Sequence record: OL956808.1
DNA: 64,000 nt
Source of the DNA: Escherichia phage vB_EcoM-S1P5QW
Direction: 5' to 3' (one strand)
Numbering within the stretch: the stretch's first letter is position 1; every line of letters begins with the position of its first letter. Below are positions 10,309 to 54,233 of the stretch, piece after piece. The position numbers and the translations under genes are program-made. The notes beneath the pieces are model-generated. The model was not told the origin of the DNA. It saw nothing but the letters and a program-made list of their open reading frames with translations, and did not search any database.

Positions 10309-10349
10309 TTCCTCTAAAGAGGAAATGATGAGACTCTTTAAAGAGTCTC
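10309..10349 (+). repeat. two adjacent perfect palindromes upstream of alpha-gt
   Basis: TTCCTCT-AA-AGAGGAA and GAGACTCTTT-AAAGAGTCTC. Confidence 0.6.
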
Positions 10350-10441
10350 ATGATAAAGCTAAAGCAGAAGGAACTATAAAATATAAGCGCATAAAATTTA
10401 AAAGTTCTAACGAGCCTCTGTATGGCGTATTATGTGGATAG
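10325..10441 (+). CDS. possible small ORF (38 aa) with SD buried in a palindrome
   Basis: AAGAGGAA SD lies inside a 7-bp-arm palindrome; very short, speculative. Confidence 0.2.
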   Translation: MMRLFKESHDKAKAEGTIKYKRIKFKSSNEPLYGVLCG

Positions 10442-18254: not shown

Positions 18255-18818
18255 ATGAGCTTATTTGAAGATGATATTCAATTAAACGAGCATCAAGTTG
18301 CTTGGTATTCAAAAGATTGGACAGCTGTCCAATCCGCTGCTGATTCTTTTAAAGAAAAAGCTGAAAATGAATTTTTTGAAATAATTGGAGCTATTAATAA
18401 TAAAACTAAATGCTCTATTGCTCAAAAAGATTATTCAAAATTCATGGTCGAAAATGCATTATCACAATTTCCAGAGTGCATGCCAGCTGTATATGCTATG
18501 AATTTAATTGGATCAGGTTTAAGTGATGAAGCCCATTTTAATTATCTGATGGCTGCAGTTCCTCGTGGTAAAAGATATGGTAAATGGGCAAAACTGGTCG
18601 AAGATTCCACCGAAGTATTGATTATTAAGTTACTTGCTAAGCGGTATCAAGTTAATACAAATGATGCAATTAACTATAAATCAATTCTTACTAAAAATGG
18701 AAAACTACCTTTAGTATTAAAAGAACTTAAAGGATTAGTCACGGATGATTTTTTAAAAGAAGTGACTAAGAACGTAAAAGAACAGAAACAACTCAAAAAA
18801 CTAGCATTGGAATGGTAA
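18255..18818 (+). CDS. 62: clamp loader small subunit gp62
   Basis: 187 aa, follows gene 44 with 1-nt spacing. Confidence 0.9.
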
Positions 18819-19515: not shown

Positions 19516-22212
19516 ATGAAAGAATTTTATATCTCTATCGAAACAGTCGGAAATAATATTGTTGAACGTTATATTGATGAAAACGGAAAGGAACGTACTC
19601 GTGAAGTAGAATATCTTCCGACTATGTTTAGGCATTGTAAGGAAGAGTCAAAATACAAAGACATCTATGGTAAAAACTGCGCTCCTCAAAAATTTCCATC
19701 AATGAAAGATGCTCGAGATTGGATGAAGCGAATGGAAGACATCGGTCTCGAAGCTCTCGGTATGAACGATTTTAAACTCGCTTATATCAGTGATACGTAT
19801 GGTTCAGAAATTGTTTATGACCGAAAATTTGTTCGTGTAGCTAACTGTGACATTGAGGTTACTGGTGATAAATTTCCTGACCCAATGAAAGCTGAATATG
19901 AAATTGATGCTATCACTCATTACGATTCAATTGATGATCGTTTTTATGTTTTCGACCTTTTGAATTCAATGTACGGTTCAGTATCAAAATGGGATGCAAA
20001 GTTAGCTGCTAAGCTTGACTGTGAAGGTGGTGATGAAGTTCCTCAAGAAATTCTTGACCGAGTAATTTATATGCCATTCGATAATGAGCGTGATATGCTC
20101 ATGGAATATATCAATCTCTGGGAACAGAAACGACCTGCTATTTTTACTGGTTGGAATATTGAGGGATTTGACGTTCCGTATATCATGAATCGCGTTAAAA
20201 TGGTTCTCGGTGAACGTAGTATGAAACGCTTCTCTCCAATCGGTCGAGTAAAATCTAAACTAATTCAAAATATGTACGGCAGCAAAGAAATTTATTCTAT
20301 TGATGGCGTATCTATTCTTGATTATTTAGATTTGTATAAGAAATTCGCATTTACTAATTTGCCGTCATTCTCTTTGGAATCAGTTGCTCAGCATGAAACC
20401 AAAAAGGGTAAATTACCATACGACGGTCCTATTAATAAACTTCGTGAGACTAATCATCAACGATACATTAGTTATAACATCATTGACGTAGAATCAGTTC
20501 AAGCAATTGATAAAATTCGCGGGTTTATCGATCTAGTTTTAAGTATGTCTTATTACGCTAAAATGCCTTTTTCCGGTGTAATGAGTCCTATTAAAACTTG
20601 GGATGCTATTATTTTTAACTCATTGAAAAGTGAACATAAGGTTATTCCTCAACAAGGTTCGCACGTTAAACAAAGTTTTCCGGGTGCATTTGTATTTGAA
20701 CCTAAACCGATTGCTCGTCGATACATTATGAGTTTTGACTTGACGTCTCTGTATCCTAGCATTATTCGTCAGGTTAACATTAGTCCTGAGACTATTCGTG
20801 GGCAGTTTAAAGTTCATCCAATTCATGAATATATCGCAGGAACAGCTCCTAAACCGAGTGATGAATATTCTTGTTCTCCGAATGGATGGATGTACGATAA
20901 GCATCAAGAAGGTATCATTCCAAAGGAAATCGCTAAAGTATTTTTCCAGCGTAAAGATTGGAAAAAGAAAATGTTCGCTGAAGAAATGAATGCCGAAGCT
21001 ATTAAAAAGATTATTATGAAAGGCGCAGGGTCTTGTTCAACTAAACCTGAAGTTGAACGATATGTTAAGTTCAGTGATGATTTCTTAAATGAACTATCGA
21101 ATTATACTGAATCTGTTCTCAATAGTTTGATTGAAGAATGTGAAAAAGCAGCTACACTTGCTAATACAAATCAGCTGAACCGTAAAATTCTTATTAACAG
21201 CCTTTACGGTGCTCTTGGTAATATTCATTTCCGTTACTATGATTTGCGAAATGCTACTGCTATCACAATTTTTGGTCAAGTTGGTATTCAGTGGATTGCT
21301 CGTAAAATTAATGAGTATCTGAATAAAGTATGTGGAACTAATGGCGAAGATTTCATCGCAGCAGGTGATACTGATTCGGTATATGTTTGTGTAGATAAAG
21401 TTATTGAAAAAGTAGGTCTTGACCGATTCAAAGAGCAGAACGATTTGGTTGAATTTATGAATCAGTTCGGTAAGAAAAAGATGGAACCTATGATTGATGT
21501 TGCATATCGTGAGTTATGTGATTATATGAATAACCGCGAGCATCTGATGCATATGGACCGTGAAGCTATTTCTTGCCCTCCGCTTGGTTCAAAGGGTGTT
21601 GGTGGATTTTGGAAAGCGAAAAAGCGTTATGCTCTGAACGTTTATGATATGGAAGATAAGCGTTTTGCTGAACCACATCTAAAAATCATGGGTATGGAAA
21701 CTCAGCAGAGTTCAACGCCTAAAGCGGTCCAAGAAGCTCTCGAAGAAAGTATTCGTCGTATTCTTCAGGAAGGTGAAGAGTCTGTCCAAGAATATTACAA
21801 GAACTTCGAGAAAGAATATCGTCAACTTGACTATAAAGTTATTGCTGAAGTAAAAACTGCGAACGATATAGCGAAATATGATGATAAAGGTTGGCCAGGA
21901 TTTAAATGCCCGTTCCATATTCGTGGGGTGCTAACTTATCGTCGAGCTGTTAATGGTCTGGGTGTAGCTCCAATTTTGGATGGAAATAAAGTAATGGTTC
22001 TTCCATTACGTGAAGGAAATCCATTTGGTGACAAGTGTATTGCTTGGCCGTCGGGCACAGAACTTCCAAAAGAAATTCGTTCTGACGTACTGTCTTGGAT
22101 TGACTACTCAACTTTGTTCCAAAAATCGTTTGTTAAACCGCTTGCAGGCATGTGTGAATCGGCTGGTATGGACTATGAAGAAAAAGCTTCGTTAGACTTC
22201 CTGTTTGGCTGA
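19516..22212 (+). CDS. 43: DNA polymerase gp43 (family B)
   Basis: 898 aa; exo motif FDIE, pol motifs SLYPS and DTDS. Confidence 0.95.
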   Translation: MKEFYISIETVGNNIVERYIDENGKERTREVEYLPTMFRHCKEESKYKDIYGKNCAPQKFPSMKDARDWMKRMEDIGLEALGMNDFKLAYISDTYGSEIVYDRKFVRVANCDIEVTGDKFPDPMKAEYEIDAITHYDSIDDRFYVFDLLNSMYGSVSKWDAKLAAKLDCEGGDEVPQEILDRVIYMPFDNERDMLMEYINLWEQKRPAIFTGWNIEGFDVPYIMNRVKMVLGERSMKRFSPIGRVKSKLIQNMYGSKEIYSIDGVSILDYLDLYKKFAFTNLPSFSLESVAQHETKKGKLPYDGPINKLRETNHQRYISYNIIDVESVQAIDKIRGFIDLVLSMSYYAKMPFSGVMSPIKTWDAIIFNSLKSEHKVIPQQGSHVKQSFPGAFVFEPKPIARRYIMSFDLTSLYPSIIRQVNISPETIRGQFKVHPIHEYIAGTAPKPSDEYSCSPNGWMYDKHQEGIIPKEIAKVFFQRKDWKKKMFAEEMNAEAIKKIIMKGAGSCSTKPEVERYVKFSDDFLNELSNYTESVLNSLIEECEKAATLANTNQLNRKILINSLYGALGNIHFRYYDLRNATAITIFGQVGIQWIARKINEYLNKVCGTNGEDFIAAGDTDSVYVCVDKVIEKVGLDRFKEQNDLVEFMNQFGKKKMEPMIDVAYRELCDYMNNREHLMHMDREAISCPPLGSKGVGGFWKAKKRYALNVYDMEDKRFAEPHLKIMGMETQQSSTPKAVQEALEESIRRILQEGEESVQEYYKNFEKEYRQLDYKVIAEVKTANDIAKYDDKGWPGFKCPFHIRGVLTYRRAVNGLGVAPILDGNKVMVLPLREGNPFGDKCIAWPSGTELPKEIRSDVLSWIDYSTLFQKSFVKPLAGMCESAGMDYEEKASLDFLFG

Positions 22213-22225
22213 TAGAATAAATCTA

Positions 22226-22246
22226 GGGACCTCCGGGTCCCTTTTT
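22226..22246 (+). terminator. rho-independent terminator after gene 43
   Basis: GGGACC-TCCG-GGTCCC then TTTTT. Confidence 0.65.
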
Positions 22247-22328
22247 CATACAAGTAATATAAATCTATACTTATGAAAAACAGATGATTCTGGACCTTTA
22301 GAATTCCCTAAAAAAATTTCACAAAACT

Positions 22329-22358
22329 GTTTACAAGACTGTTCTTCCATGGTACTAT
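22329..22358 (+). promoter_or_regulatory. T4-type early promoter (GTTTAC-N18-TACTAT)
   Basis: consensus elements, AT-rich upstream; coordinates approximate. Confidence 0.6.
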
Positions 22359-22386
22359 ACAACTATCAACTACGGAGGAACACAAA

Positions 22387-22638
22387 ATGAAAAATATTCA
22401 AACTAATTTTATTCAAAATTTAAAAGTTGTTAACGCAGAAAAAGCTAATAAACTCTTTAAAGTTAAAGAATTTGAAAATGAAGGTAACACTTACGGTATT
22501 ATAGAACAAAATGGAATGGTTACTGGATTAGAAATTTATAATGGTAAAGGAAAATTTCAGTCACAGCCAATTTCTGTTATGGGTGTAAGAAAAGGAATTA
22601 AAACTGAAGATGCTTTAAAGTTATTTGTTAAGTTTTAA
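22387..22638 (+). CDS. hypothetical protein
   Basis: 83-aa ORF after an early promoter, GGAGGAA SD. Confidence 0.45.
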   Translation: MKNIQTNFIQNLKVVNAEKANKLFKVKEFENEGNTYGIIEQNGMVTGLEIYNGKGKFQSQPISVMGVRKGIKTEDALKLFVKF

Positions 22639-22650
22639 GAGGAAATTATT

Positions 22651-23031
22651 ATGAAAATCGCTATTTTGGTTATTGCATTAGGTCTTACTGGTTGTGTGGC
22701 TCAAGGACCGGTAGTAAATCAGTCTGATGTAGGAAAAATTGTAAACTGTTCAAGCAAGTTTTATAATCCTAATGTCAAGTGTTATAAAGAAGCTCCAAAG
22801 CAAACAGTAGAACAAATGCAGGCGAATTTTGACGAAGCTATTCGTCCAGATGAATCTGCTCAAGCATATCGTAATTCGGATGTAATTACACGCGAAGAAA
22901 AAATTGAAAACTACTGCGCCGAGCTTTGGGCTAATTGGGCTAATAATTACCAATGGCGTACCGGTAAAAATGCTCCGATGGAGTATGTAGTGAATTCTTA
23001 TAATTCATGCGTAAAAAATTTGACTAAGTGA
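22651..23031 (+). CDS. putative lipoprotein
   Basis: 126 aa, signal peptide with LTGC lipobox. Confidence 0.5.
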   Translation: MKIAILVIALGLTGCVAQGPVVNQSDVGKIVNCSSKFYNPNVKCYKEAPKQTVEQMQANFDEAIRPDESAQAYRNSDVITREEKIENYCAELWANWANNYQWRTGKNAPMEYVVNSYNSCVKNLTK

Positions 23032-23038
23032 GGAAAAC

Positions 23039-23290
23039 ATGGAAACTTTAGTAGCAGGTTCAATTTTTATGGTTTTAGTTTCAGGCGTGTTGGCTATTAT
23101 TATATACATGCTTCCATGGTTTATCGCCTTGATGCGTGGGTCAAAATCGACAGTAGGAATCTTTTTCACGTCTTTACTGTTTAACTGGTCAATTATTGGT
23201 TGGTTTATTACATTTATTTGGTCAATTGCGGGTGAAACTAAAAAGTCTGCACAGCCAAATCAGGTAATTATCATCAGAGAGAAGGAATGA
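23039..23290 (+). CDS. imm: superinfection immunity membrane protein Imm
   Basis: 83 aa, two TM helices, position between 43 and 42. Confidence 0.6.
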   Translation: METLVAGSIFMVLVSGVLAIIIYMLPWFIALMRGSKSTVGIFFTSLLFNWSIIGWFITFIWSIAGETKKSAQPNQVIIIREKE

Positions 23291-23436
23291 AAAGCAAAAT
23301 TATAGCAGTGTTGCTTTTAATCTTGATGATTATAATAAGTATATACTATAGTGTAACGGTTCCTCTTATGATTCCAACTATTATTTTAGGTTGGAGCTTA
23401 TTACTGTTACAAGTTAAATATGAATGTATCAATTGA
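23287..23436 (+). CDS. small membrane protein (49 aa)
   Basis: not in track; ATGA overlap with imm stop; strongly hydrophobic. Confidence 0.3.
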   Translation: MKSKIIAVLLLILMIIISIYYSVTVPLMIPTIILGWSLLLLQVKYECIN

Positions 23437-23443
23437 GGTTTAA

Positions 23444-24184
23444 ATGATTAGTGACTCTATGACAGTTGAAGAAATCCGTCTTCATTTGGGGCTTGCATTA
23501 AAGGAAAAAGATTTCGTAGTTGATAAAACTGGTGTTAAAACTGTTGAAATTATTGGCGCATCATTTGTAGCAGATGAACCCTTTATTTTTGGCGCTCTTA
23601 ATGATGAATACATTCAGCGTGAACTTGAATGGTACAAGTCTCAAAGTCTGTTTGTTAAAGATATTCCAGGTGAAACACCAAAGATTTGGCAGCAGGTAGC
23701 ATCTTCTAAAGGCGAAATTAACTCGAATTATGGTTGGGCTATTTGGTCAGAAGATAACTATGCCCAGTATGATATGTGTTTAGCTGAACTTGGTCAAAAT
23801 CCTGATTCTCGACGTGGTATCATGATTTATACTCGTCCATCTATGCAGTTTGACTATAATAAAGATGGTATGTCAGATTTCATGTGCACGAATACAGTAC
23901 AGTACCTGATTCGTGACAAGAAAGTCAATGCAGTAGTAAGCATGCGCTCAAATGACGTGGTCTTCGGATTCCGTAATGATTATGCATGGCAAAAATACGT
24001 ATTAGATAAATTAGTATCTGATTTGAATGCAGGCGATTCAACTCGTCAGTATAAAGCAGGTTCTATTATATGGAATGTTGGAAGTCTTCATGTATATTCT
24101 CGTCATTTTTACTTGGTTGATCATTGGTGGAATACTGGCGAAACTCATATTGTGAAAAAAGACTATAAAGGTGAGTGGAAATGA
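23444..24184 (+). CDS. 42: dCMP hydroxymethylase
   Basis: 246 aa, thymidylate-synthase-like fold, recognised as T4 gp42. Confidence 0.9.
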   Translation: MISDSMTVEEIRLHLGLALKEKDFVVDKTGVKTVEIIGASFVADEPFIFGALNDEYIQRELEWYKSQSLFVKDIPGETPKIWQQVASSKGEINSNYGWAIWSEDNYAQYDMCLAELGQNPDSRRGIMIYTRPSMQFDYNKDGMSDFMCTNTVQYLIRDKKVNAVVSMRSNDVVFGFRNDYAWQKYVLDKLVSDLNAGDSTRQYKAGSIIWNVGSLHVYSRHFYLVDHWWNTGETHIVKKDYKGEWK

Positions 24185-25023
24185 TTCAATTCGTAATTCC
24201 AAGTTATCAACGTGTCGGGGCAGTTTCTGCCCTTGATATGTTTCCGACTGATTATGAACCGCATATTGTAGTGCGTGAACACGAAGAAAAAGCTTATTAT
24301 GATGCTTATGGGTCTAGAGCTAAAATTATAACTATTCCTGATGATGTAAACGGAATTGCCGGTACTCGTAAAGCAATTACTGATATGTATGCAGGTCAAC
24401 GAATTTGGATGATTGACGATGATACTACTATTCGTATGAGTTCAATGCGAAAAAGAGATGACCGTCGTTGTGTGGATAAAGTCAATCAATTGACTCATGA
24501 ACAGTTCTATGAATTGATTCAATATGTTGAGGATGCCATGGATTGTGGGTATTATCATGGCCATGCTCGTCTACCTATTTTTAAAATTACTTCATCTTGG
24601 GGCAATTATCGTGAAAATTCATATGGATTCACGAATACATGGTATGACCTCGGAAAACTTACTACAGAACAAATTGGGTATGGAAAAATTGATTTATGCG
24701 AAGATATGTATGCATTTCTCAATTTAATTAGTCAAGGTTATCCGCATTTGGCCTTGTTCAAATATCTGGTTGTATCTGGAAAAGCACAAGCTCCTGGCGG
24801 GTGTAGTTCAATTCGTAGTAATTCTAAACATAATAGAGCGCTTGAGCAAATCAATAGAGAGTTTCCAGAGCAAGCTCGTTGGAAAACTTCTAATATTGAA
24901 AAACGAAAATCGTTGGGTGAAGAAGACGAGCCATTAAAGGTTCTTCGCATGTGTGTTTCACGTAAAGAAAAATCAGAAGCATTTCATAAGTTTAATGCTA
25001 TTCATCCAATAGCAGTTGATTAA
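24181..25023 (+). CDS. putative DNA glycosyltransferase (GT-A-like, DxD), occupying the T4 beta-gt locus
   Basis: 281 aa from ATG overlapping gene 42 stop; IDDDTT motif; not T4 beta-gt (351 aa). Confidence 0.55.
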   Translation: MIQFVIPSYQRVGAVSALDMFPTDYEPHIVVREHEEKAYYDAYGSRAKIITIPDDVNGIAGTRKAITDMYAGQRIWMIDDDTTIRMSSMRKRDDRRCVDKVNQLTHEQFYELIQYVEDAMDCGYYHGHARLPIFKITSSWGNYRENSYGFTNTWYDLGKLTTEQIGYGKIDLCEDMYAFLNLISQGYPHLALFKYLVVSGKAQAPGGCSSIRSNSKHNRALEQINREFPEQARWKTSNIEKRKSLGEEDEPLKVLRMCVSRKEKSEAFHKFNAIHPIAVD

Positions 25024-25100
25024 TGCCTAAATTTATTGTGTTATAATTACTCTATCTTTAACCAGTGAGGAAAATATAATGATGCCTATGGAAAAAATGA

Positions 25101-26282
25101 ATGTCTATTGCAGATTTAAAATCCCGTTTGATTAAAGCTTCCACTTCTAAAATGACTGCTGAACTGACTACATCTAAATTCTTTAATGAAAAGGATGTAA
25201 TCCGTACAAAAATCCCAATGCTTAATATTGCTATTTCTGGTGCGATTGATGGCGGCATGCAGTCTGGTTTAACTATTTTCGCAGGGCCTTCTAAACACTT
25301 TAAATCAAATATGTCTTTGACTATGGTTGCGGCATATTTGAACAAATATCCTGACGCGGTTTGTCTATTCTATGATAGCGAATTTGGTATTACTCCAGCT
25401 TATTTACGATCCATGGGAGTTGACCCGGAACGAGTAATTCATACGCCAATTCAGTCAGTTGAACAGCTGAAAATTGATATGGTGAACCAGCTTGAAGCTA
25501 TTGAGCGTGGTGAAAAGGTTATTGTATTCATCGACTCAATCGGTAATATGGCTTCTAAGAAAGAAACGGAAGATGCCTTGAATGAAAAATCTGTGGCAGA
25601 TATGACTCGTGCTAAATCACTGAAGTCATTATTCCGTATTGTTACTCCTTATTTTAGCATTAAAAATATTCCATGTGTTGCGGTTAACCATACAATTGAA
25701 ACAATTGAAATGTTTAGTAAAACCGTGATGACAGGTGGTACAGGCGTAATGTATTCGGCTGATACTGTATTCATTATCGGTAAACGCCAGATTAAAGATG
25801 GTTCTGATCTTCAGGGGTATCAATTTGTTCTAAATGTAGAAAAATCTCGTACCGTTAAAGAAAAAAGTAAATTCTTTATTGATGTTAAATTTGACGGTGG
25901 TATCGATCCTTATTCTGGATTGTTAGATATGGCTCTAGAATTAGGATTTGTTGTAAAACCTAAGAATGGTTGGTATGCTCGTGAATTTCTTGACGAAGAA
26001 ACTGGCGAGATGATTCGCGAAGAAAAATCTTGGCGTGCAAAAGATACCAACTGCACTACATTCTGGGGTCCTTTATTTAAGCATCAACCATTCCGAGATG
26101 CTATTAAACGTGCTTATCAGTTAGGTGCTATTGATAGTAATGAAATTGTTGAAGCTGAAGTTGATGAATTGATTAACTCAAAGGTTGAAAAATTTAAATC
26201 TCCAGAAAGTAAAAGTAAATCAGCAGCTGATTTAGAAACTGACCTCGAGCAGTTAAGTGATATGGAAGAATTTAATGAATAA
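25101..26282 (+). CDS. uvsX: recombinase UvsX (RecA-like)
   Basis: 393 aa, Walker A GPSKHFKS, recognised as T4 UvsX. Confidence 0.95.
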   Translation: MSIADLKSRLIKASTSKMTAELTTSKFFNEKDVIRTKIPMLNIAISGAIDGGMQSGLTIFAGPSKHFKSNMSLTMVAAYLNKYPDAVCLFYDSEFGITPAYLRSMGVDPERVIHTPIQSVEQLKIDMVNQLEAIERGEKVIVFIDSIGNMASKKETEDALNEKSVADMTRAKSLKSLFRIVTPYFSIKNIPCVAVNHTIETIEMFSKTVMTGGTGVMYSADTVFIIGKRQIKDGSDLQGYQFVLNVEKSRTVKEKSKFFIDVKFDGGIDPYSGLLDMALELGFVVKPKNGWYAREFLDEETGEMIREEKSWRAKDTNCTTFWGPLFKHQPFRDAIKRAYQLGAIDSNEIVEAEVDELINSKVEKFKSPESKSKSAADLETDLEQLSDMEEFNE

Positions 26283-40121: not shown

Positions 40122-40559
40122 ATGATTAAAAATAATGCTGTTTATCAATTGAAAAAATTTGATGAAATTAAGAATTTTTCGGTACTGTCTAATACAGCTC
40201 ATAATAAGTTTTGTGAACTTCTTGGTTTAACTGGCGGATATCCTTTTACTGTTATTAGTGTTAATAGCGGAATTCTTATCGGTATGATGTATATTGAAAT
40301 TAGAAACTATTATGGAATGGTATCATCGCTTATTATTTATGAAAAAGATTTTAGTCTATTGACAGAAATTGAAAAACCTGAAGATCCAACTGATCTGCTG
40401 CGTAAGGCAGTTTATATTCGTCGTCCATTCGCGAATCCTGTTGGTGGATGGGTGACTGATCAGTGGATTGAAGATGGTGTTGAACTTCTGAACGTAGTTC
40501 ATGCTGGAGAGTACTCTGTAGTTCCTCGCAGCGCAGTGATTAATGTTCGTGTAAGCTAG
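40122..40559 (+). CDS. hypothetical protein with conserved C-terminal DQW(I/V)EDG module
   Basis: 145 aa; shares C-terminal ~30 aa with the next two ORFs. Confidence 0.45.
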   Translation: MIKNNAVYQLKKFDEIKNFSVLSNTAHNKFCELLGLTGGYPFTVISVNSGILIGMMYIEIRNYYGMVSSLIIYEKDFSLLTEIEKPEDPTDLLRKAVYIRRPFANPVGGWVTDQWIEDGVELLNVVHAGEYSVVPRSAVINVRVS

Positions 40560-40588
40560 TTTACAAACTCTTGGGACCAGAGTATAAT
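40559..40588 (+). promoter_or_regulatory. T4-type early promoter
   Basis: GTTTAC-N18-TATAAT. Confidence 0.55.
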
Positions 40589-40631
40589 GGTCCTGCGGAG
40601 TATAAATCTTAACAACAAAGAGAGAAAAATT

Positions 40632-41105
40632 ATGATTACTATCGGTGAAATTAAGCGTGTATCGTCTGCATCTCGTTCTAAAGCTGCAGGTCGTTTAGTT
40701 GAAGTGGTAGGACTTCGTACTAATGGTACTGGTCGTGTTAAAGAAGTTAAAGTTCGAATCATTCCTAGTTCTGGAAAAACTGAAACTCAGTACGCTTACG
40801 TAAGTCCTAAATTTCTGGAAACTCGTGTTAGCTCTCATTTTGCTTCTGTTGAAGAAGTTGAATCTACTGAGTCTAATACACAATTTAAATGGGCGTTGTG
40901 TAAAGGCGTTGAATTTGTAACTGATGAAGAATTCGATTATATTGATGATTTCGCTGGTCCAAGTAAAACTGATAGGATGTGTGGCTTCATCACAGACCAA
41001 TGGGTTGAAGATGGTGAAAAGCTCTACAATATCGTATTCTTAGGTGACTTCCGGGTTGTTGAAGAATCTGAAATCACTCGTTATGCTTCTCCTCGTAAAG
41101 CTTAA
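40632..41105 (+). CDS. hypothetical protein, paralog with DQWVEDG module
   Basis: 157 aa from ATG; full-length paralog of the next ORF. Confidence 0.45.
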   Translation: MITIGEIKRVSSASRSKAAGRLVEVVGLRTNGTGRVKEVKVRIIPSSGKTETQYAYVSPKFLETRVSSHFASVEEVESTESNTQFKWALCKGVEFVTDEEFDYIDDFAGPSKTDRMCGFITDQWVEDGEKLYNIVFLGDFRVVEESEITRYASPRKA

Positions 41106-41114
41106 GGAATTATT

Positions 41115-41534
41115 ATGAATATTGTAAATCTCTCTACTGGTGATTACGTATATGTATCCGTTGCTTCTCGTTCTAAAGTTGCAGGAAAGCTGGTTGAAGT
41201 TCTTTCTGTAAGTGATCCAGTTTTTGGTCGTAACGAGGTTAAAGTTCGTGACGCTGATGGTAACATTGGTTATGTCTCAAGTCAGTTCATTGAGCCAGAA
41301 GAACGCGCATTTAAATGGAAACTTTGTTCTTCAGTTTTAGTTGTAAAAGACCATAAATTCACAATTGCGGCGGCAACAGATGGAACTCCATGGACAACGA
41401 ATCAAGTCGCTGGTTTTATTTCGGACCGTTGGGTAGAAGATGGTGTCAAGCTCTACAATATTGTTTTTGCAGGCCAGTTCATGGTAGTTCCTGAATTCCA
41501 AATTAAAAAATGGTGCGAAGCAGCTTTAGCATAA
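41115..41534 (+). CDS. hypothetical protein, paralog with DRWVEDG module
   Basis: 139 aa. Confidence 0.45.
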   Translation: MNIVNLSTGDYVYVSVASRSKVAGKLVEVLSVSDPVFGRNEVKVRDADGNIGYVSSQFIEPEERAFKWKLCSSVLVVKDHKFTIAAATDGTPWTTNQVAGFISDRWVEDGVKLYNIVFAGQFMVVPEFQIKKWCEAALA

Positions 41535-41643
41535 ATTTGCATAAAGTTTAAATTTTTTTTTCATAAAACTATATACATCAGTAGTTGATTATGGTACTAT
41601 ATCAATATCAACTACTGATACAGAAAACAACTTGGAGAATAAA

Positions 41644-41913
41644 ATGGAAAATTTAATTATCATCGAGCAATCTTTCAATGATTATGGTATGGCTTACGGT
41701 TATCGTGCGATAATGGAAGATTCTCGTGGATGTGTTATCGATATTGCTGAATGTAAAGATTTACTGCAGCTTTTGAAGATTGTTCGCAAAAATTGGGATT
41801 GCGAAAATATTAAAGTTCGAGTTGTTACAGAAGAAGAAACTGTTTTTCATGATGTAAAATTCGCTAAAGGTGCTGCTACTCTTCTGAAACGCATCGCTCC
41901 ACTGTTCAATTAA
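41644..41913 (+). CDS. hypothetical protein
   Basis: 89 aa from ATG with GGAGA SD; downstream of a promoter embedded in a stem-loop. Confidence 0.4.
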   Translation: MENLIIIEQSFNDYGMAYGYRAIMEDSRGCVIDIAECKDLLQLLKIVRKNWDCENIKVRVVTEEETVFHDVKFAKGAATLLKRIAPLFN

Positions 41914-45541: not shown

Positions 45542-47719
45542 ATGATTATCACCACTGAAAAAGAAACAATTCTTGGTAATGGTTCTAAATCAAAAGCATT
45601 TAGCATCACAGCATCTCCTAAAGTATTTAAAATTCTGTCGTCTGATTTGTATACAAACAAGATTCGTGCAGTAGTCCGTGAATTGATTACCAACATGATT
45701 GATGCCCATGCTCTCAATGGAAATCCTGAAAAATTTATTATTCAAGTTCCTGGACGTTTAGATCCACGATTTGTTTGCCGAGATTTTGGTCCGGGTATGA
45801 GTGATTTTGATATTCAGGGTGATGATAATTCTCCTGGGTTGTATAATTCATATTTCAGTTCATCTAAGGCTGAATCTAACGATTTCATTGGCGGATTTGG
45901 TTTAGGTTCTAAATCTCCGTTTAGTTATACTGATACATTTAGTATTACTTCATATCATAAAGGCGAAATTCGTGGTTATGTAGCTTACATGGATGGTGAC
46001 GGTCCGCAGATTAAACCTACATTCGTAAAAGAAATGGGTCCAGATGATAAAACTGGTATTGAAATCGTAGTTCCAGTTGAAGAAAAAGACTTTAGAAACT
46101 TTGCTTATGAAGTTTCTTATATCATGCGACCGTTCAAAGATTTGGCTATCATTAATGGTCTTGACCGCGAAATTGATTATTTTCCTGATTTTGATGATTA
46201 TTATGGTGTAAATCCAGAAAGATACTGGCCTGATCGTGGTGAATTATATGCTATCTATGGCGGTATTGTTTATCCTATCGATGGTGTTATTAGAGACCGT
46301 AACTGGCTAAGCATTCGCAATGAAGTGAATTACATTAAGTTTCCAATGGGTTCACTTGATATTGCTCCATCTCGCGAGGCTCTTTCACTAGATGATCGCA
46401 CTCGTAAAAATATCATTGAACGAGTTAAAGAACTCAGTGAGAAAGCATTTAATGAAGATGTAAAACGATTTAAAGAATCTACATCTCCTCGTCACACATA
46501 TCGCGAATTAATGAAGATGGGGTATTCTGCTCGAGATTATATGATTAGTAATTCAGTCAAATTCACGACTAAAAATCTGTCATATAAAAAGATGCAGAGC
46601 ATGTTTGAACCTGACAGTAAGTTATGCAATGCAGGAGTTGTGTATGAAGTAAATCTTGACCCTCGACTGAAACGCATTAAGCAAAGTCATGAAACTTCAG
46701 CCGTTGCATCAAGTTATCGTCTGTTTGGTATTAATACAACAAAAATTAATATCGTTATTGATAATATTAAAAATCGTGTTAATATTGTTCGTGGATTAGC
46801 ACGTGCGTTAGATGATAGTGAATTTAATAACACTTTGAATATTCATCATAACGAACGCCTTTTGTTTATTAACCCAGAAATAGAATCGCAGATTGATTTA
46901 CTTCCTGATATTATGGCGATGTTTGAAAGTGATGAAGTTAACATTCATTATTTGTCAGAAATTGAAGCTTTAGTAAAAAGTTATATTCCAAAGGTAGTTA
47001 AAAGTAAAGCTCCTCGTCCTAAAGCTGCTACAGCATTTAAGTTTGAAATTAAAGATGGGCGTTGGGAAAAAGAGGAATTATTTACACTTACGTCAGAAGC
47101 AGATGAAATTACTGGTTATGTAGCGTATATGCATCGTTCTGATATTTTCTCTATGGATGGTACTACATCACTTTGTCATCCATCTATGAATATTTTGATT
47201 CGTATGGCTAATCTTATTGGCATTAATGAATTTTATGTTATTCGTCCGCTTTTACAGAAAAAGGTAAAAGAACTCGGTCAGTGCCAATGTATTTTTGAAG
47301 CTTTGCGTGATTTATATGTAGATGCTTTTGATGATGTAGATTATGATAAGTATGTAGGTTATTCAAGTTCAGCTCAACGATATATTGATAAAATTATCAA
47401 GTATCCTGAACTAGATTTTATGATGAAGTACTTCAGTACAGATGAAGTTTCTGAAGAATATACACGACTTGGTAATATGGTTAGTTCATTACGCGGTGTA
47501 TATTTCAACGGTGGAAAAGATACCATCGGTCATGATATCTGGACAGTAACTAATCTCTTTGATGAATTATCACGTAATGCTTCAAAAAATAGTGATAAAA
47601 TGGTTGCTGAGTTTACCAAGAAATTCCGTATTGTTTCCGACTTCATCGGTTATCGCAACTCTTTAAGTGATGATGAAGTTTCCCAAATCGCTAAAACTAT
47701 GAAGGCCCTTGCGGCCTAA
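45542..47719 (+). CDS. rIIA: rIIA protein
   Basis: 725 aa, recognised as T4 rIIA. Confidence 0.95.
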
Positions 47720-47730
47720 TAAGGAAAATT

Positions 47731-48669
47731 ATGTACAATATTAAATGCCTGACCAAAAACGAACAAGCTGAAATTGTTAAATTGTATTCAAGCGGTAATT
47801 ACACCCAACAGGAATTGGCTGATTGGCAAGGTGTATCGGTTGACACAATTCGTCGTGTTTTGAAAAATGCTGAAGAAGCTAAACGCTCTAAAGTTACTAT
47901 TAGCGGTGATATTACAATTAAAGTTAATAGCGATGCAGTTATTGCTCCAGTTGCTAAATCTGACATTATTTGGAATGCATCTAAAAAATTCATTTCAATT
48001 ACTGTTGACGGTGTAACTTATAACGCAACTCCTAATACTCATTCAAACTTCCAGGAAATTCTTAATCTGCTTGTAGCAGATAAGTTGGAAGAAGCGGCAC
48101 AAAAAATTAATGTTCGTCGCGCTGTTGAAAAATATATTTCCGGCGATGTTCGAATTGAAGGCGGAAGCTTGTTCTATCAAAATATCGAATTACGGTCTGG
48201 TTTAGTTGATCGTATTCTCGATTCGATGGAAAAAGGTGAAAACTTTGAATTTTATTTTCCGTTCTTGGAAAATCTGCTGGAAAACCCAAGCCAGAAAGCG
48301 GTATCTCGACTCTTTGATTTCTTGGTAGCAAACGATATTGAAATTACAGAAGATGGTTACTTCTATGCTTGGAAAGTAGTTCGTGACAACTACTTTGACT
48401 GTCACTCAAACACCTTTGATAACAGTCCTGGTAAAGTAGTTAAAATGCCGCGTACTCGTGTGAATGACGATGATACACAAACTTGTTCTCGTGGTCTGCA
48501 TGTATGTTCTAAATCTTATATTCGTCACTTTGGCAGTTCAACCAGCCGAGTTGTAAAAGTTAAAGTACATCCACGTGATGTAGTATCAATTCCGATTGAT
48601 TACAACGATGCTAAAATGCGTACCTGCCAATACGAAGTAGTTGAAGACGTTACTGAACAATTTAAATAA
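47731..48669 (+). CDS. rIIB: rIIB protein
   Basis: 312 aa, position after rIIA, followed by hairpin. Confidence 0.9.
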   Translation: MYNIKCLTKNEQAEIVKLYSSGNYTQQELADWQGVSVDTIRRVLKNAEEAKRSKVTISGDITIKVNSDAVIAPVAKSDIIWNASKKFISITVDGVTYNATPNTHSNFQEILNLLVADKLEEAAQKINVRRAVEKYISGDVRIEGGSLFYQNIELRSGLVDRILDSMEKGENFEFYFPFLENLLENPSQKAVSRLFDFLVANDIEITEDGYFYAWKVVRDNYFDCHSNTFDNSPGKVVKMPRTRVNDDDTQTCSRGLHVCSKSYIRHFGSSTSRVVKVKVHPRDVVSIPIDYNDAKMRTCQYEVVEDVTEQFK

Positions 48670-48684
48670 GGGCTTCGGCCCTTA
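48670..48684 (+). terminator. UUCG-tetraloop hairpin after rIIB
   Basis: GGGCTTCGGCCC. Confidence 0.45.
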
Positions 48685-48701
48685 TCATATTAAGGAAAAT
48701 T

Positions 48702-48896
48702 ATGTTAGGTTATCAAGCACGAGTAAAAGAAGAATACGATCAATTAATGCTCAAAATTAATGCACTGAGCAAATTTTTAGAAAGCGCAAAGTTTCTAACA
48801 GTTAACGCAGTTGAGCAAGAACTGCTACTTTCGCAGTTCATCTCAATGAAATCTTATGCTGAGTGTCTAGAGAAAAGAATCGCACAATTCAAATAA
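48702..48896 (+). CDS. hypothetical protein
   Basis: 64-aa ORF flanked by two GGGCUUCGGCCC hairpins. Confidence 0.4.
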   Translation: MLGYQARVKEEYDQLMLKINALSKFLESAKFLTVNAVEQELLLSQFISMKSYAECLEKRIAQFK

Positions 48897-48901
48897 AATA
48901 A

Positions 48902-48917
48902 GGGCTTCGGCCCTTTT
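48902..48917 (+). terminator. UUCG-tetraloop hairpin terminator
   Basis: GGGCTTCGGCCC then TTTT. Confidence 0.55.
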
Positions 48918-48959
48918 GTTTTAAGAGAAATTATGATTCCGACATAAAGGAAAGTTTAA

Positions 48960-49517
48960 ATGCAGAAAACGAATCCGGGTTTACAGAGACTATTTCAGAT
49001 TCCGACATTTACCCTATCGAACAGTGACTTGACTAGTGAAATGAAGGTCAAAATTGCTGATACAGCAAGATACTCTTTAAAACAAAACCCGAACCAGGAT
49101 AAAGCAGAAGTTATCGAAAGATGCCGTATCGCTGTGTACGCAGAGTTTTTTGTGGCAGATTGGCTAAGCGGATATGTCAATAAAGGCCAAGAAAATGTCG
49201 ATGATCCGTACACGTATGCATGGGATGTTTTAGCGCATCCAAAATATTGCGGGCTTCGTGTAGAAGTCAAAACACATCAAACTGACTCGCGTTGGATTTC
49301 GGTAACAACGGGATGCAGCGGAGAGTATCCATATGGTTCTGGAATAAATTTAGGGCCCATTCTAAATCATCAAGTCGCTGACTGTATAATTATATTCAAC
49401 ACTAAAGAAATTCATCCAGGTGTCATCCAGTACACTCCGAAGTTCATCGGTGACAGAGAAGACCTTCGTAAGGTTGTAAGAAAAAGCAACTACAACGGAT
49501 GGTATCTTTCCATTTAA
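48960..49517 (+). CDS. denB: endonuclease IV DenB-like
   Basis: 185 aa, size and position after rIIB as in T4. Confidence 0.55.
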   Translation: MQKTNPGLQRLFQIPTFTLSNSDLTSEMKVKIADTARYSLKQNPNQDKAEVIERCRIAVYAEFFVADWLSGYVNKGQENVDDPYTYAWDVLAHPKYCGLRVEVKTHQTDSRWISVTTGCSGEYPYGSGINLGPILNHQVADCIIIFNTKEIHPGVIQYTPKFIGDREDLRKVVRKSNYNGWYLSI

Positions 49518-49533
49518 AAATTTTCACAAAACG

Positions 49534-49563
49534 GTTTACATACCACAAGGACCGTGGTACTAT
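49534..49563 (+). promoter_or_regulatory. T4-type early promoter
   Basis: GTTTAC-N18-TACTAT. Confidence 0.6.
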
Positions 49564-49597
49564 ACAACTATCAACTGATACTGATTTGGAGAGTAAA

Positions 49598-49861
49598 ATG
49601 AAATTTAAATTTTATTATGCTAAGCATAAAATAACTGATGAGTTTGTGTCAGTTGAATATTCTAGCGATGATGAAGGCATGATTTATACTCGCTTAGGAT
49701 TATCGCATTGGGAGTCTGATCAGCCTTATTTTTCAACTCCTGAAGAAATTACACGCTTAGTTAATGGTCATATGAATGACCACTGGAATGTAATTCTTTC
49801 AGATAGTCTTAAAGAGGCTATTAATAGTAATGAAATGAAAATCGCTGAGATTGAGCTATGA
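49598..49861 (+). CDS. hypothetical protein
   Basis: 87 aa from ATG with GGAGAG SD after an early promoter. Confidence 0.4.
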   Translation: MKFKFYYAKHKITDEFVSVEYSSDDEGMIYTRLGLSHWESDQPYFSTPEEITRLVNGHMNDHWNVILSDSLKEAINSNEMKIAEIEL

Positions 49862-50046
49862 GTTCATTATGGTGGTGTTTTGTTTGGTTAATTAGTATTC
49901 CAGTAATTTGTTTAACATTTACTTTTGTGATGAGGTTATTATGAAAATTTTGAATTCTGTACTTATTGCTTGTGCGTGGTGGGTTGCACAGGTTTCAGCG
50001 GTAGTAGTTGGTATTCACATTTATTACGAATATTTTTAAAAAAGTT

Positions 50047-50076
50047 GTTTACAAGACTGTTCTTCCGTGGTACTAT
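50047..50076 (+). promoter_or_regulatory. T4-type early promoter (near-identical copy of the 22329 cassette)
   Basis: GTTTAC-N18-TACTAT. Confidence 0.6.
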
Positions 50077-50104
50077 TACCCTATCAACTACGGAGGAACA
50101 GAAA

Positions 50105-50218
50105 ATGAAAAAGATTATTAAAGCTATATGGAATGTAGTTATAATACTAATAGTTTTGAGTATATTCCCAATCGTTTTAATGATTGATGTATTAAACGCT
50201 TATTTTGGATTTATGTGA
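50105..50218 (+). CDS. small membrane protein (37 aa)
   Basis: ATG with GGAGGAA SD after an early promoter; hydrophobic. Confidence 0.3.
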   Translation: MKKIIKAIWNVVIILIVLSIFPIVLMIDVLNAYFGFM

Positions 50219-50225
50219 GGAAAAT

Positions 50226-50423
50226 ATGAAGCGTAAACGTAGTGCTTTTACATTTATTGAATGGTTTTTCGATAATATTTTTCCGGCTTTATTCATTTTC
50301 ATGCTGATTTTTGCCTTAGGTTCAGTTGTAGTTGGAATCTATTTGATGGCGGTAGTCGGAATGGATATTCATCAAAATGGTTTAAAATCTGTGGTTGAAA
50401 CAATTTGGAATGGTGTAAAATGA
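50226..50423 (+). CDS. small membrane protein
   Basis: 65 aa from ATG with GAGGAAA SD; two hydrophobic segments. Confidence 0.35.
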   Translation: MKRKRSAFTFIEWFFDNIFPALFIFMLIFALGSVVVGIYLMAVVGMDIHQNGLKSVVETIWNGVK

Positions 50424-50538
50424 TGAATTTGCTGAGTGGTTGGTTTTATATTCTCATGTTTTACATTGGTGCAAATTTCCCATATTGGATGGGATGGTCA
50501 ACAACTGCATTTGGATTTTATACTCCTTGAGGTGAATT

Positions 50539-50754
50539 ATGAAAATCTTTAAAGATGTAAAAGTTGGTGAAATTTTTTGCTTAGATAATGGTGATCAGTT
50601 AATTCGTATTTCGCCTCTTAAAAGCACTAGCGAGAAAATGACAGTTAACGCTACTTTAGCAAATAACAGCAATGAACGTTTCTGTATTGAAAATGATACT
50701 GAAACTTATACTGTAGAAGAGTTCTGGGAATTAAGCGTCGACTGCGATGATTAA
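50539..50754 (+). CDS. hypothetical acidic protein
   Basis: 71-aa ORF, GAGG SD. Confidence 0.4.
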   Translation: MKIFKDVKVGEIFCLDNGDQLIRISPLKSTSEKMTVNATLANNSNERFCIENDTETYTVEEFWELSVDCDD

Positions 50755-50814
50755 TTTAATGGCCGTGTGTATTCATGCGGCCTTGGAGTAGAAAATAATT
50801 TAGAGGAAATTAAT

Positions 50815-51273
50815 ATGAAATATATGACTGTTACTGATCTGAACAATGCAGGCGCTACCGTTATTGGTACAATCAAGAACGGTGAATGGTTTTTGGGAGT
50901 TCCACATAAAGATATTTTATCTAAACCTGGATTTTACTTTTTAGTAAGTAAATTAGATGGTCGTCTATTTAGTAATCCATGTGTGTCTGCACGATTTTAT
51001 GTAGGTAATCAACGTTCTAAGCAAGGATTCAGTGCAGTTCTAAGTCATATTCGTCAGCGTCGGTCTCAGCTTGCACGTACTATTGCAAATAACAATGTTC
51101 CATACACGGTATTTTATCTACCTGCTTCTAAGATGAAACCTCTGACGACGGGGTTTGGAAAAGGTCAGTTAGCTTTGGCGTTTACCCGTAATCATCATTC
51201 TGAGTATCAAACACTTGAAGAAATGAATCGTATGTTGGCTGATAACTTTAAATTTGTTTTGCAGGCGTATTAA
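50815..51273 (+). CDS. ndd: nucleoid disruption protein Ndd
   Basis: 152 aa from ATG ([11 protein letters not shown]) with GAGGAAA SD, recognised as T4 Ndd. Confidence 0.75.
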
Positions 51274-51360
51274 TGAGTAATTTCCATAACGAACACGTGA
51301 TGCAGTTCTATCGTAACAATCTTAAAACTAAAGGCGTCTTCGGACGCCAGTGAGGAAAAT

Positions 51361-51519
51361 ATGAATATTGCAAAATTATTAGGAGTTATTTCATTTATTT
51401 GTTGGATAGTAGCATGTGTTTTAACTATCTGTATTGATGCCAGCAGCGTGTTTTCACAAGCTTTAGCTCAGGGTATGTGTGCATATTTAACATTTGTGTT
51501 GTTATCTACTAATGATTAA
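51361..51519 (+). CDS. small membrane protein (52 aa), possibly Ac-like
   Basis: not in track; GAGGAAAAT SD preceded by a hairpin; hydrophobic. Confidence 0.3.
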   Translation: MNIAKLLGVISFICWIVACVLTICIDASSVFSQALAQGMCAYLTFVLLSTND

Positions 51520-51656
51520 GAAAATCTTGGGCTACTCAGTAGCCCTTGCTACTTTATTGGTAGCACTATATTATGGAGTAATGTTCGGATTAATTCAAGT
51601 CGTGCTTTTCATTTCTGATGTTATTATGGCACTACATTCACTAGTATGGTAAATTT

Positions 51657-52985
51657 ATGCAACTGAATAATCGCGATTTAAAAAGTATCATTGATAATGA
51701 AGCATTGGCTTATGCTATGTACACGGTTGAAAATCGTGCTATTCCAAATATGATTGATGGATTTAAGCCAGTTCAACGATTTGTTATTGCTCGAGCTCTT
51801 GATTTGGCACGAGGAAATAAAGATAAGTTTCACAAACTCGCTTCTATTGCAGGTGGTGTAGCGGACCTTGGATATCACCATGGTGAAAACTCTGCACAAG
51901 ATGCAGGTGCTTTGATGGCTAATACTTGGAATAATAACTTTCCTCTGTTAGATGGTCAAGGAAACTTTGGTTCTCGTACTGTCCAAAAGGCAGCGGCAAG
52001 TCGTTATATTTTTGCTCGTGTAAGTAAAAATTTCTATAACGTATATAAAGATACTGAATATGCTCCGGTACATCAAGATAAAGAACACATTCCGCCTGCT
52101 TTCTATTTGCCTATTATTCCTACTGTTCTTCTTAATGGTGTTTCCGGTATTGCAACTGGTTATGCAACTTACATTCTTCCTCATAGTGTTTCTTCTGTTA
52201 AGAAAGCTGTACTGCAAGCTCTTCAAGGAAAGAAAGTAACTAAACCGAAGGTAGAATTCCCAGAATTTCGTGGTGAAGTCGTTGAAATTGACGGTCAATA
52301 TGAAATTCGTGGAACATATAAGTTTACTTCACGAACTCAAATGCATATCACTGAGATTCCGTATAAGTATGATCGTGAAACTTATGTGAGTAAAATCTTA
52401 GACCCGCTTGAAGATAAAGGCTTCATTACATGGGATGATGCTTGTGGTGAGCATGGTTTTGGCTTTAAAATTAAATTCCGCAAAGAATACTCTTTGAGCG
52501 ATAACGAAGAAGAACGCCATGCAAAAATCATGAAAGACTTCGGGTTGATTGAGCGTCGTTCCCAGAATATTACCGTTATTAATGAGAAAGGAAAACTACA
52601 AGTTTACGATAACGTAGTTGATTTAATTAAAGACTTCGTTGAAGTTCGTAAAACTTATGTCCAAAAGCGAATTGATAACAAAATCAAAGAAACTGAATCA
52701 GCATTTCGTTTAGCCTTTGCCAAGGCACATTTCATTAAGAAAGTGATTTCAGGTGAAATTGTTGTACAAGGTAAAACTCGCAAAGAACTGACTGAAGAAC
52801 TTTCTAAAATTGATATGTATTCTTCTTATGTTGATAAACTAGTTGGAATGAACATTTTTCATATGACTTCCGACGAAGCAAAGAAACTTGCTGAAGAAGC
52901 TAAAGCTAAAAAAGAAGAAAACGAATATTGGAAAACTACTGATGTAGTTACAGAATACACTAAAGATTTAGAGGAAATCAAATGA
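51657..52985 (+). CDS. 52: DNA topoisomerase II medium subunit (GyrA-like)
   Basis: 442 aa, recognised as T4 gp52. Confidence 0.9.
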   Translation: MQLNNRDLKSIIDNEALAYAMYTVENRAIPNMIDGFKPVQRFVIARALDLARGNKDKFHKLASIAGGVADLGYHHGENSAQDAGALMANTWNNNFPLLDGQGNFGSRTVQKAAASRYIFARVSKNFYNVYKDTEYAPVHQDKEHIPPAFYLPIIPTVLLNGVSGIATGYATYILPHSVSSVKKAVLQALQGKKVTKPKVEFPEFRGEVVEIDGQYEIRGTYKFTSRTQMHITEIPYKYDRETYVSKILDPLEDKGFITWDDACGEHGFGFKIKFRKEYSLSDNEEERHAKIMKDFGLIERRSQNITVINEKGKLQVYDNVVDLIKDFVEVRKTYVQKRIDNKIKETESAFRLAFAKAHFIKKVISGEIVVQGKTRKELTEELSKIDMYSSYVDKLVGMNIFHMTSDEAKKLAEEAKAKKEENEYWKTTDVVTEYTKDLEEIK

Positions 52986-53131
52986 GTCCATTCATAGGTA
53001 TTACAAGCGCGGCATTAGTATCTGGTAGCATTTTACTAGCGGGTTTAGGTGTTGTTCCAGCTGTAGCAGGAGGTCTTCTTGCGTTCGGCATTCAACGTGT
53101 TATCATGACAGTTATCACAGTCATGCAGTAA
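52982..53131 (+). CDS. small membrane protein (49 aa)
   Basis: not in track; ATGA overlap with gene 52 stop; followed by strong terminator. Confidence 0.3.
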   Translation: MSPFIGITSAALVSGSILLAGLGVVPAVAGGLLAFGIQRVIMTVITVMQ

Positions 53132-53136
53132 TTTTA

Positions 53137-53165
53137 GGGAGAGCCAAGGCTCTCCCTTTTTATTT
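53137..53165 (+). terminator. rho-independent terminator after gene 52 region
   Basis: GGGAGAGCC-AA-GGCTCTCCC then TTTTTATTTT. Confidence 0.7.
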
Positions 53166-53186
53166 TAAAATTTTTTTCACAAAACG

Positions 53187-53216
53187 GTTTACAACCAAAG
53201 CATACTGTGGTACTAT
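53187..53216 (+). promoter_or_regulatory. T4-type early promoter upstream of motA
   Basis: GTTTAC-N18-TACTAT. Confidence 0.6.
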
Positions 53217-53257
53217 ACAACTATCAACTGCTGATACAGAATTACGGAGATTAGAAA

Positions 53258-53893: not shown

Positions 53894-53903
53894 GGAATAA
53901 ATA

Positions 53904-54233
53904 ATGAACAAGTTAGAAATTGTTAATGAACTTCGTCGTTGCGCAGAACCTACTCAAGAGGGGTGGGACATCTGGTATCATGGAGCTTATCTTGGAACTA
54001 TCGTAAAGATTAAGACTGGTAAATACATGATTATTCGTGAAAGTAAAGATGCTCCAGTAGGTATTCGCAATAATTTTATGGCAGCGATAAGTTCATTTAC
54101 GGATGCAGCTTACGAAATTTACCTTGCTGATTATAAAGAATTCCAGGAATCTCAACCAGTTATTCGCTCAATTGGTGTTAACAAAGCTCAACAGAAAACT
54201 TTGTGGCAACGTATTAAAGGATGGTTTAAATGA
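53904..54233 (+). CDS. hypothetical protein
   Basis: 109-aa ORF, GAGGAA SD. Confidence 0.45.

Follow-up and report, generated by a model that had tools for sequence, protein, structure and literature searches.

Why does a unit of early promoter, leader and start codon recur almost unchanged about 28 kb away, in front of a different gene, in the genome of a T4-type phage? The question is raised by a 64,000-nt stretch of Escherichia phage vB_EcoM-S1P5QW (record OL956808.1), which was analysed at its full length and is referred to here as the window. Self-BLASTN of these 64 kb gave the best repeat at 22328-22394 and 50046-50112 (67 nt, 61/67 identical, 91.0%, E 6.4e-17), followed by runner-up repeats of 20-24 nt only. 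The distance between the two copies, hereafter A and B, is 27.7 kb. The initial annotation had set the start of GTTTAC at 22329 and 50047 and the identity at about 90 percent, both in agreement with the alignment of 22329-22389 with 50047-50107 (55/61, 90.2%). Its span of copy A started correctly and ended too early, at 22386, the true end lying 3 nt further on with the ATG at 22387-22389; the start codon of copy B is at 50105-50107. The left edge of the identity is sharp at the -35 element, with only 12/30 matches in the 30 nt upstream, and on the right side the identity drops directly after ATGAAAAA. Between these edges the similarity is not confined to the promoter hexamers, because the spacers agree at 17/18 positions and the 30 nt past the -10 at 25/30, while the remaining pairs among the ten early-type promoters of the window agree at 2-12/18 and 6-21/30, respectively. 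By pattern scan, GTTTAC-N15-19-TACTAT was found five times in the window, always on the + strand, against 0.05 occurrences expected. A related element had also been noticed downstream of the promoters at 49534 and 53187; this is GTGGTACTATACAACTATCAACTG, identical at 24/24 positions between 49554-49577 and 53207-53230 in the self-BLASTN, and 22 nt of it are also present at 22350-22371 in copy A. The small ORFs behind copies A and B are unrelated, as claimed, giving no BLASTP alignment with each other and belonging to different PHROG families.

Some other repeats of the window were observed in the same search. Hairpins resembling terminators, (A)AGGGCTTCGGCCCTT(T), nearly identical to one another and with a tetraloop of the CUUCGG type, recur in intergenic spaces as extra 16-20 nt repeats of the self-BLASTN, and such hairpins are a classic T4 feature. 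Their motif GGGC...GCCC has been linked to T4 deletion end-points (PMC2839356). Three tandem ORFs of 145, 172 and 139 aa (40122-40559, 40587-41105 and 41115-41534) share the C-terminal motif ..TDQWVEDG.KLYNIVF.G.F.VV.., from which the 32-nt repeat 41001-41032 / 41430-41461 arises, and look like a small paralogue family. Two perfect palindromes were also detected, ATGAGACTCTTTAAAGAGTCTCAT (24 nt) at 10328-10351 and GATTGGACAGCTGTCCAATC (20 nt) at 18315-18334.

Table 1. Positions in the window of copies A and B, of the related cassettes and of the genes and hairpins beside them
Feature	Position	Strand	Description
Terminator-like AGGGCTTCGGCCCTT hairpins	8073, 11712, 17247, 19443, 48670, 48902 (+); 57224 (-); variant 43386		
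Terminator hairpin after gene 43	22225..22246	+	AGGGACC-TCCG-GGTCCCT and T5; terminator scan, fold
Copy A, UP-like A/T-rich region	22299..22328	+	...AAAAAAATTTCACAAAACT; 23/30 A+T
Copy A, promoter core	22329..22358	+	-35 GTTTAC 22329-22334; 18-nt spacer AAGACTGTTCTTCCATGG; TGn 22350-22352; -10 TACTAT 22353-22358
Copy A, start-site region and leader	22359..22386	+	ACAACTATCAACT box, then version-II leader ACGGAGGAACACAAA
Copy A, SD	22374-22378	+	GGAGG; sequence
ORF83	22387..22638	+	83 aa, RB51ncORF048c family, phrog_18567; variable passenger gene of copy A
imm.1	22651-23031		3' of ORF83
Weaker cassette	41571..41646	+	degenerate -35 ATATAC; TGG-TACTAT (-10 41595-41600); ATCAATATCAACT box; leader ACTGATACAGAAAACAACTTGGAGAATAAA; ATG 41644
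Related cassette 3' of denB	49534..49597	+	GTTTAC, unrelated spacer, GTGGTACTAT, ACAACTATCAACT box, version-I leader (GATACTGATTTGGAGAGTAAA)
ORF87	49598-49861		87 aa, homologue of PST ORF268; driven by the 49534 cassette; followed by ndd.6, ndd.5
Copy B, A/T-rich upstream region	50017..50046	+	26/30 A+T
Copy B, promoter core	50047..50076	+	-35 GTTTAC; spacer AAGACTGTTCTTCCGTGG; -10 TACTAT 50071-50076
Copy B, start-site region and leader	50077..50104	+	TACCCTATCAACT, then version-II leader ACGGAGGAACAGAAA
Copy B, SD	50092-50096	+	GGAGG; sequence
ndd.4	50105..50218	+	37 aa, annotated predicted inner-membrane protein; passenger gene of copy B
motA cassette	53136..53257	+	complete PeSL-type unit: hairpin 53136-53157 and T run; -35 at 53187; -10 53211-53216; ACAACTATCAACT box; GGAG leader; motA ATG 53258

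In both copies, an A/T-rich UP tract precedes GTTTAC, and the -10, TACTAT, is extended by TGn; both are oriented with the early genes, the + strand being the early-gene direction of the window. The consensus of T4 early promoters includes GTTTAC at -36 to -31, an A-rich UP region and a GT-rich or TGn extended -10, the -10 itself having its A at position -11 and its T at position -7 (review by Hinton 2010, PMC2988021; Nolan et al. 2006, PMC1524935). The reading as early promoter, SD and start codon is supported by the orthologous sites in other records: X75802 (T4) annotates the copy-B promoter with its -35 and -10 signals as well as the neighbouring promoter of 49534 type, and the record of phage fPS-65 annotates a terminator and a 'predicted early promoter' at the copy-A site. 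We infer that copies A and B are putative sigma-70 early promoters of the T4 type.

The surroundings of the two copies are different. The stem-loop partner of copy A is the gene 43 hairpin, located 83 nt 5' of the -35 and kept in T4, GiZh, ESh16, KNP5 and ZZ23. The UP region of copy A resembles those of the 49534 and 53187 promoters (19/30 with that of 49534), unlike that of copy B (12/30). Copy B is located between ndd.5 and ndd.4, and the 3' end of ndd.5 (stop 50037-50039) overlaps its upstream region. No hairpin was detected upstream of copy B, where the terminator scan gave no terminator-like site and the fold z-score was -0.72; the terminator scan and fold likewise gave no stem-loop upstream of the 49534 promoter. 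The hairpin of the motA cassette has a fold z-score of -6.3. The leader of copy B is identical in GiZh, RB32, ESH35 and the IMG/VR contigs, and in T4 it carries one substitution, ACGGAGG to ATGGAGG. In the record of Shigella phage ESH35 (L011, UNVERIFIED), ac follows directly after ndd.4 at 2221-2500, ndd.2a, ndd.2, ndd.1 and ndd being apparently deleted.

Overall, the window is Tequatrovirus DNA of T2/RB51/GiZh-like character, its identity to genomes of this genus being 97-100%. Region 20000-26000 is 97-98% identical to RB51, RB68, T2 and TadeuszReichstein, the closest genomes for 47000-55000 are FelixPlatter (97.2%) and GiZh and the PYPS2T-group phages (97.0%), and 49380-50560 is 99.5% identical to GiZh. 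The genome is thus a mosaic, since the best-matching genomes differ between its two parts; no single record is best for both the gene 43-42 region and the rII-motA region, which is ordinary Tequatrovirus mosaicism.

Promoter-early stem-loop (PeSL) cassettes have been described for T4-type phages (PMC2839356; PMC4122927), and we consider it very probable that copies A and B are members of a T-even family of early-promoter/leader cassettes with modular shuffling of the PeSL type. A BLASTN census with 84 nt of copy A gave 3789 places in 621 records, typically about 7 per Tequatrovirus genome. The exact-pattern scan of IMG/VR with the 30-nt promoter core returned 3 contigs only, all with arrangements already known. 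Besides the cassettes described above, the window includes a weaker member at 41571, possibly a decaying or 'half' cassette, the leader of which hardly differs from that of a related cassette located after the tRNA genes of phage F2 (L013 1513-1590). In phage A6-6, a core of the copy-A type and leader II precede a 175-aa gene of another family.

Locus A, between gene 43 and imm.1, was compared in the 516 records that contain it, and three alleles were found behind one promoter core. ORF83 with leader II is present in 30 records, ORF78 (phrog_4189, unrelated to ORF83) with leader I in 326, and about 160 have no ORF, leader I being joined to imm.1 at the repeat ATGAAAAT; T4, T6, RB6 and ESh16 belong to the last group. 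The left boundary of the replacement between ORF83 and ORF78 is CTATCAACTAC, inside the cassette, and the right junction, GAGGAAATTATTATGAAAATCGCT, is common to all alleles and is the initiation region of imm.1. The promoter core with the same spacer is present at loci A and B in all the Tequatrovirus genomes examined, T4 included, and the core of copy A itself was found at the same locus in T4, GiZh and ZZ23. Leader II at locus A is confined to the ORF83 allele of T2/RB51 type (about 6% of the records). Judging from these alignments, the 67-nt identity of A and B is composed of two layers, a shared promoter core and the leader II that accompanies ORF83 at A. The initial annotation had called the segment duplicated; a 67-nt repeat does exist, but the term is too simple, as the core is old at both loci and the identity of the leaders is tied to the ORF83 allele.

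Members of the ORF83 family were found at the copy-A locus in 30 Tequatrovirus records, while the 7 Dhakavirus records that have one carry it elsewhere. The homologue of IME08, a Dhakavirus, has 54% aa identity and is located in the tk-rI-mobD-nrdC.11 region, with a terminator hairpin, GTTTAC...TACTAT and the leader CTATCAACTAATGAGGAGAACAAAATGAAAA in front of it, this leader being similar to leader II. Dhakavirus PSD2002 has a hairpin, promoter and leader identical to those of IME08, and the ORF is missing, its ATG being fused to the next gene at the junction ATG|AAA. The presence of a leader-II-like sequence at the Dhakavirus homologue indicates that ORF83 and its leader probably came from outside together, and we infer a recombination with another T-even genome as the likely route.

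Among the relatives, at least four states were found for the slot flanked by the denB-proximal promoter and copy B: both ORF68 and ORF87 before ndd.6 in slur02 and PST, ORF87 alone in the window and GiZh, ORF68 and a remnant in RB32, and in T4 no more than eight residual codons from the 3' end of ORF87. The MKIAEIEL mini-ORF that follows the denB promoter in T4 was also considered as a transplanted imm.1 start, but the alignment identified it as the ORF87 3' remnant. The junctions of the slot are located in AATRAAATG / ATGAAAT repeats at start codons. Cassette-bounded indels between relatives, for which the initial annotation had proposed to look, are found at both loci A and B. PST ORF269 and ORF268 correspond to ORF68 and ORF87, and by this mapping of ORF numbers the denB-ndd slot just upstream of copy B is the example of Fig. 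6A in PMC4122927. The deletions seen use microhomologies of 8-12 nt that exist at most T4 gene starts, so that the promoter itself may not be the substrate.

These same slots could be the traces of active mobile PeSL minicircles, excised between flanking cassettes and reintegrated elsewhere, possibly by a dedicated protein. In RB49 and phi1, inverse PCR has demonstrated minicircles (Arbiol et al. 2010, PMC2839356), the mapped crossovers of those in RB49 fall in the interval from the -10 to the SD or ATG (PMC2839356), and a minicircle-type mechanism was proposed for the ndd slot in Fig. 6A (PMC4122927). The occurrence of ORF83 with hairpin, promoter and leader at different loci in two genera, and of the same core and leader before an unrelated gene in A6-6, is also in agreement with mobility. 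Simple cassette-to-cassette excision, however, would predict an allele without the inter-promoter segment, and among 60 rows sampled out of 500 records, not one had lost the entire stretch from the 49534-type promoter to the 50047-type promoter. The 8-codon remnant in T4 points to an internal microhomology deletion and not to cassette-to-cassette excision. Furthermore, copy B is without a hairpin, and no recombinase is associated. On balance, active minicircles appear rather unlikely as the explanation of the present alleles. Reciprocal recombination between A and B was also rejected as a source of deletions, because the crossover would delete or duplicate 27.7 kb with essential replication genes (genes 42, uvsX, 41, 61 and 39) and would not be viable. 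The view of the repeats as potential recombination substrates is supported by the shuffling of alleles at both cassettes, a productive reciprocal exchange of A with B being unlikely.

The behaviour of the leaders bears on another possibility, a recent intragenomic duplication or gene conversion, by which the copy B cassette would have been transferred onto the 43-imm.1 promoter (copy A). The restriction of leader II at locus A to the ORF83 allele could be read in this way, and the leader of the neighbouring promoter has indeed turned to version II in ESH35 and KMB26. The same promoter and ORF87 are combined with leader I in the window, with ACAAC and leader II in KMB26, and with TACCC and leader II in ESH35; from these combinations, the leader versions are seen to reassort, apparently independently of both promoter and ORF. 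Conversion of A by B is improbable, however, for four reasons. The identity of the promoter cores must be old, being present in T4, GiZh and ZZ23, the locus A of which is without leader II; locus B lacks ORF83, the gene that leader II adjoins at A; the Dhakavirus homologue of ORF83 already has the leader-II-like sequence; and copy A keeps ACAAC where copy B has TACCC. These diagnostic differences, together with an A/G difference in the spacer, are stable across genomes, indicating that the two copies are not actively homogenised.

Convergence under a common constraint on strong early promoters (-35, -10 and SD), without shared history or exchange, is very improbable. It would account for the finding that all early promoters of the window combine GTTTAC with TGn, a -10 of the form TA...T and A/T-rich DNA upstream, and reviews have noted extra consensus positions in T4 early promoters (PMC2988021). 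The excess of identity between A and B in both the spacer and the region past the -10 is, however, not reached by pairs of equally good promoters, and the leader versions are discrete and reassorting. The start-site box, TACTAT-A.A/C.C-(C/T)TATCAAC(T), recurs with little or no change in at least five of the window's promoters. In its paralogous promoters the box is conserved at 13/13 positions while the spacers are randomised (7-9/18). The box also follows TACTAT in promoters of Dhakavirus and Mosigvirus with unrelated spacers and is thus conserved beyond Tequatrovirus. For instance, TACTAT is followed by AGACCTATCAAC or AGCCTTATCAAC in Dhakavirus VR5 (L022 417-480 and 705-770) and Mosigvirus JS09 (L021 419-490). 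That the box is functional and marks a distinct subclass of T-even early promoters is a tentative proposal, to which we attach little confidence; as a cis-element it might act in promoter escape, in Alt-dependent stimulation or in the shut-off of early promoters. The shut-off of early promoters is still unexplained (PMC2988021).

The leaders fold like shuffled sequences (-1.8 kcal/mol, z +1.4, and z -0.5), and the GGAG, a predicted RegB motif, is present and unpaired in both copies A and B. RegB cuts GGAG in the initiation regions of T4 early mRNAs, with the strong-site consensus GG*AGRAYARAA (Uzan & Miller 2010, PMC3014915). Leader version I (GGAGAATAAAA), which occurs in relatives and resembles the 49534 and motA leaders of the window, agrees with this consensus at 7/7 positions, the motA leader of the window at 6/7, and version II of copies A and B (GGAGGAACAC/GA) at only 4/7 of the 3' positions. 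The proposal that the transcribed part is a structured regulatory RNA (riboswitch, translational operator or small RNA) might appeal to the conservation of leader and start-site box across loci and partly across genera, but it is scarcely credible and was dropped, since no Rfam family was above threshold anywhere in the window and the leaders, only 28-45 nt long and purine/A-rich, have no structure.

A family of shuffling early-promoter/leader cassettes, as preferred here, would work as follows. From the biology of T4, host sigma-70 RNA polymerase would recognise the UP region, GTTTAC, TGn and TACTAT, and start transcription in the conserved CTATCAAC box. The transcript would begin with an unstructured leader of 25-45 nt, the GGAG SD of which is a predicted RegB target. 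The leader ends in ATGAAA, so that the small accessory ORF would be expressed right after infection and then shut off. As the comparison of relatives shows, the cassette consists of reassorting modules (the UP region, the spacer, the box at the start site, a leader of version I or II, and the passenger ORF), with exchanges in conserved blocks of short length, namely CTATCAACTAC and (G)GAG...ATGAAA. These blocks would provide short homologies for the very active recombination system of T4, and leaders and ORFs could thereby be replaced, lost or gained with their neighbours undisturbed.

The observations illustrate a way in which T4-type phages, although strictly lytic, can exchange their small accessory genes while essential operons are left undisturbed: new ORFs plug in behind ready-made promoter/leader units, the conserved blocks of which serve as patches of short homology. 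The finding as such is already known, because T4 early promoters, the PeSLs of T4/PST and the ndd-region example have all been published, and the practical value is limited for the same reason, both concept and locus being in the literature. Incremental additions are the two-layer origin of the repeat, the free reassortment of leaders, the movement of ORF83 with its cassette between genera and the microhomology junctions at start codons. The second and the last of these refine the PeSL concept, in that leader versions reassort without regard to promoter and ORF and several 'PeSL-associated' deletions are microhomology deletions at start codons. For annotation, the sites deserve labels such as early promoter or PeSL-type cassette.

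Comparison with known systems places the cassettes closest to the PeSLs, which were extended to the T4/PST pair with the consensus TTTACW-N17-TAYWAT (Comeau, Arbiol & Krisch 2014, PMC4122927). TTTACA-N17-TACTAT is present at 22330-22358 and 50048-50076, and the consensus is also found at 49535 and 53188. As in PeSLs, an A/T-rich region and an early promoter are followed by SD and start codon at the 3' end in both copies, and both sit by small variable ORFs in hyperplastic regions, adjoining indels or replacements between relatives. The crossover interval of RB49, from the -10 to the SD or ATG, is also the interval of the chimeric junctions observed here. The likeness to PeSLs, proposed in the initial annotation, is thus supported by the T4/PST consensus and by the variable slots. 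For the stem-loop the agreement is incomplete: it is absent at copy B and at 49534 and lies 83 nt 5' in copy A, the motA cassette being complete. Lacking the stem-loop, copy B is a 'degraded' or 'half' PeSL in the terms of the authors (PMC4122927). PeSLs differ further in that two whole cassettes recombine, whereas the deletions observed here use microhomologies of the leader or start codon.

With T4 early promoters, copies A and B share GTTTAC, UP region, TGn, -10 and orientation, and the sites are annotated in T4 itself. They form a subclass with -10 TACTAT and the conserved start-site box, which is not described in the consensus statements of PMC2988021 and PMC1524935. As in the GGAG regions of T4 that are targeted by RegB, the leaders are unstructured and the GGAG SD is followed by an A-rich tract; by sequence match alone, leader I fits the strong-site consensus fully and leader II partly.

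A parallel also exists outside the T-even phages. Morons of lambdoid phages, reportedly described by Hendrix and colleagues, are promoter-gene-terminator units inserted between conserved genes. Their expression is usually from the prophage, and no conserved promoter or leader sequence is known to be common to them. As in morons, a terminator, an own promoter and a small accessory ORF are present or absent between conserved neighbours at differing loci. In the T-even cassettes, in contrast, the shared cassette sequence itself gives the homology for exchange, and the phage is strictly lytic.
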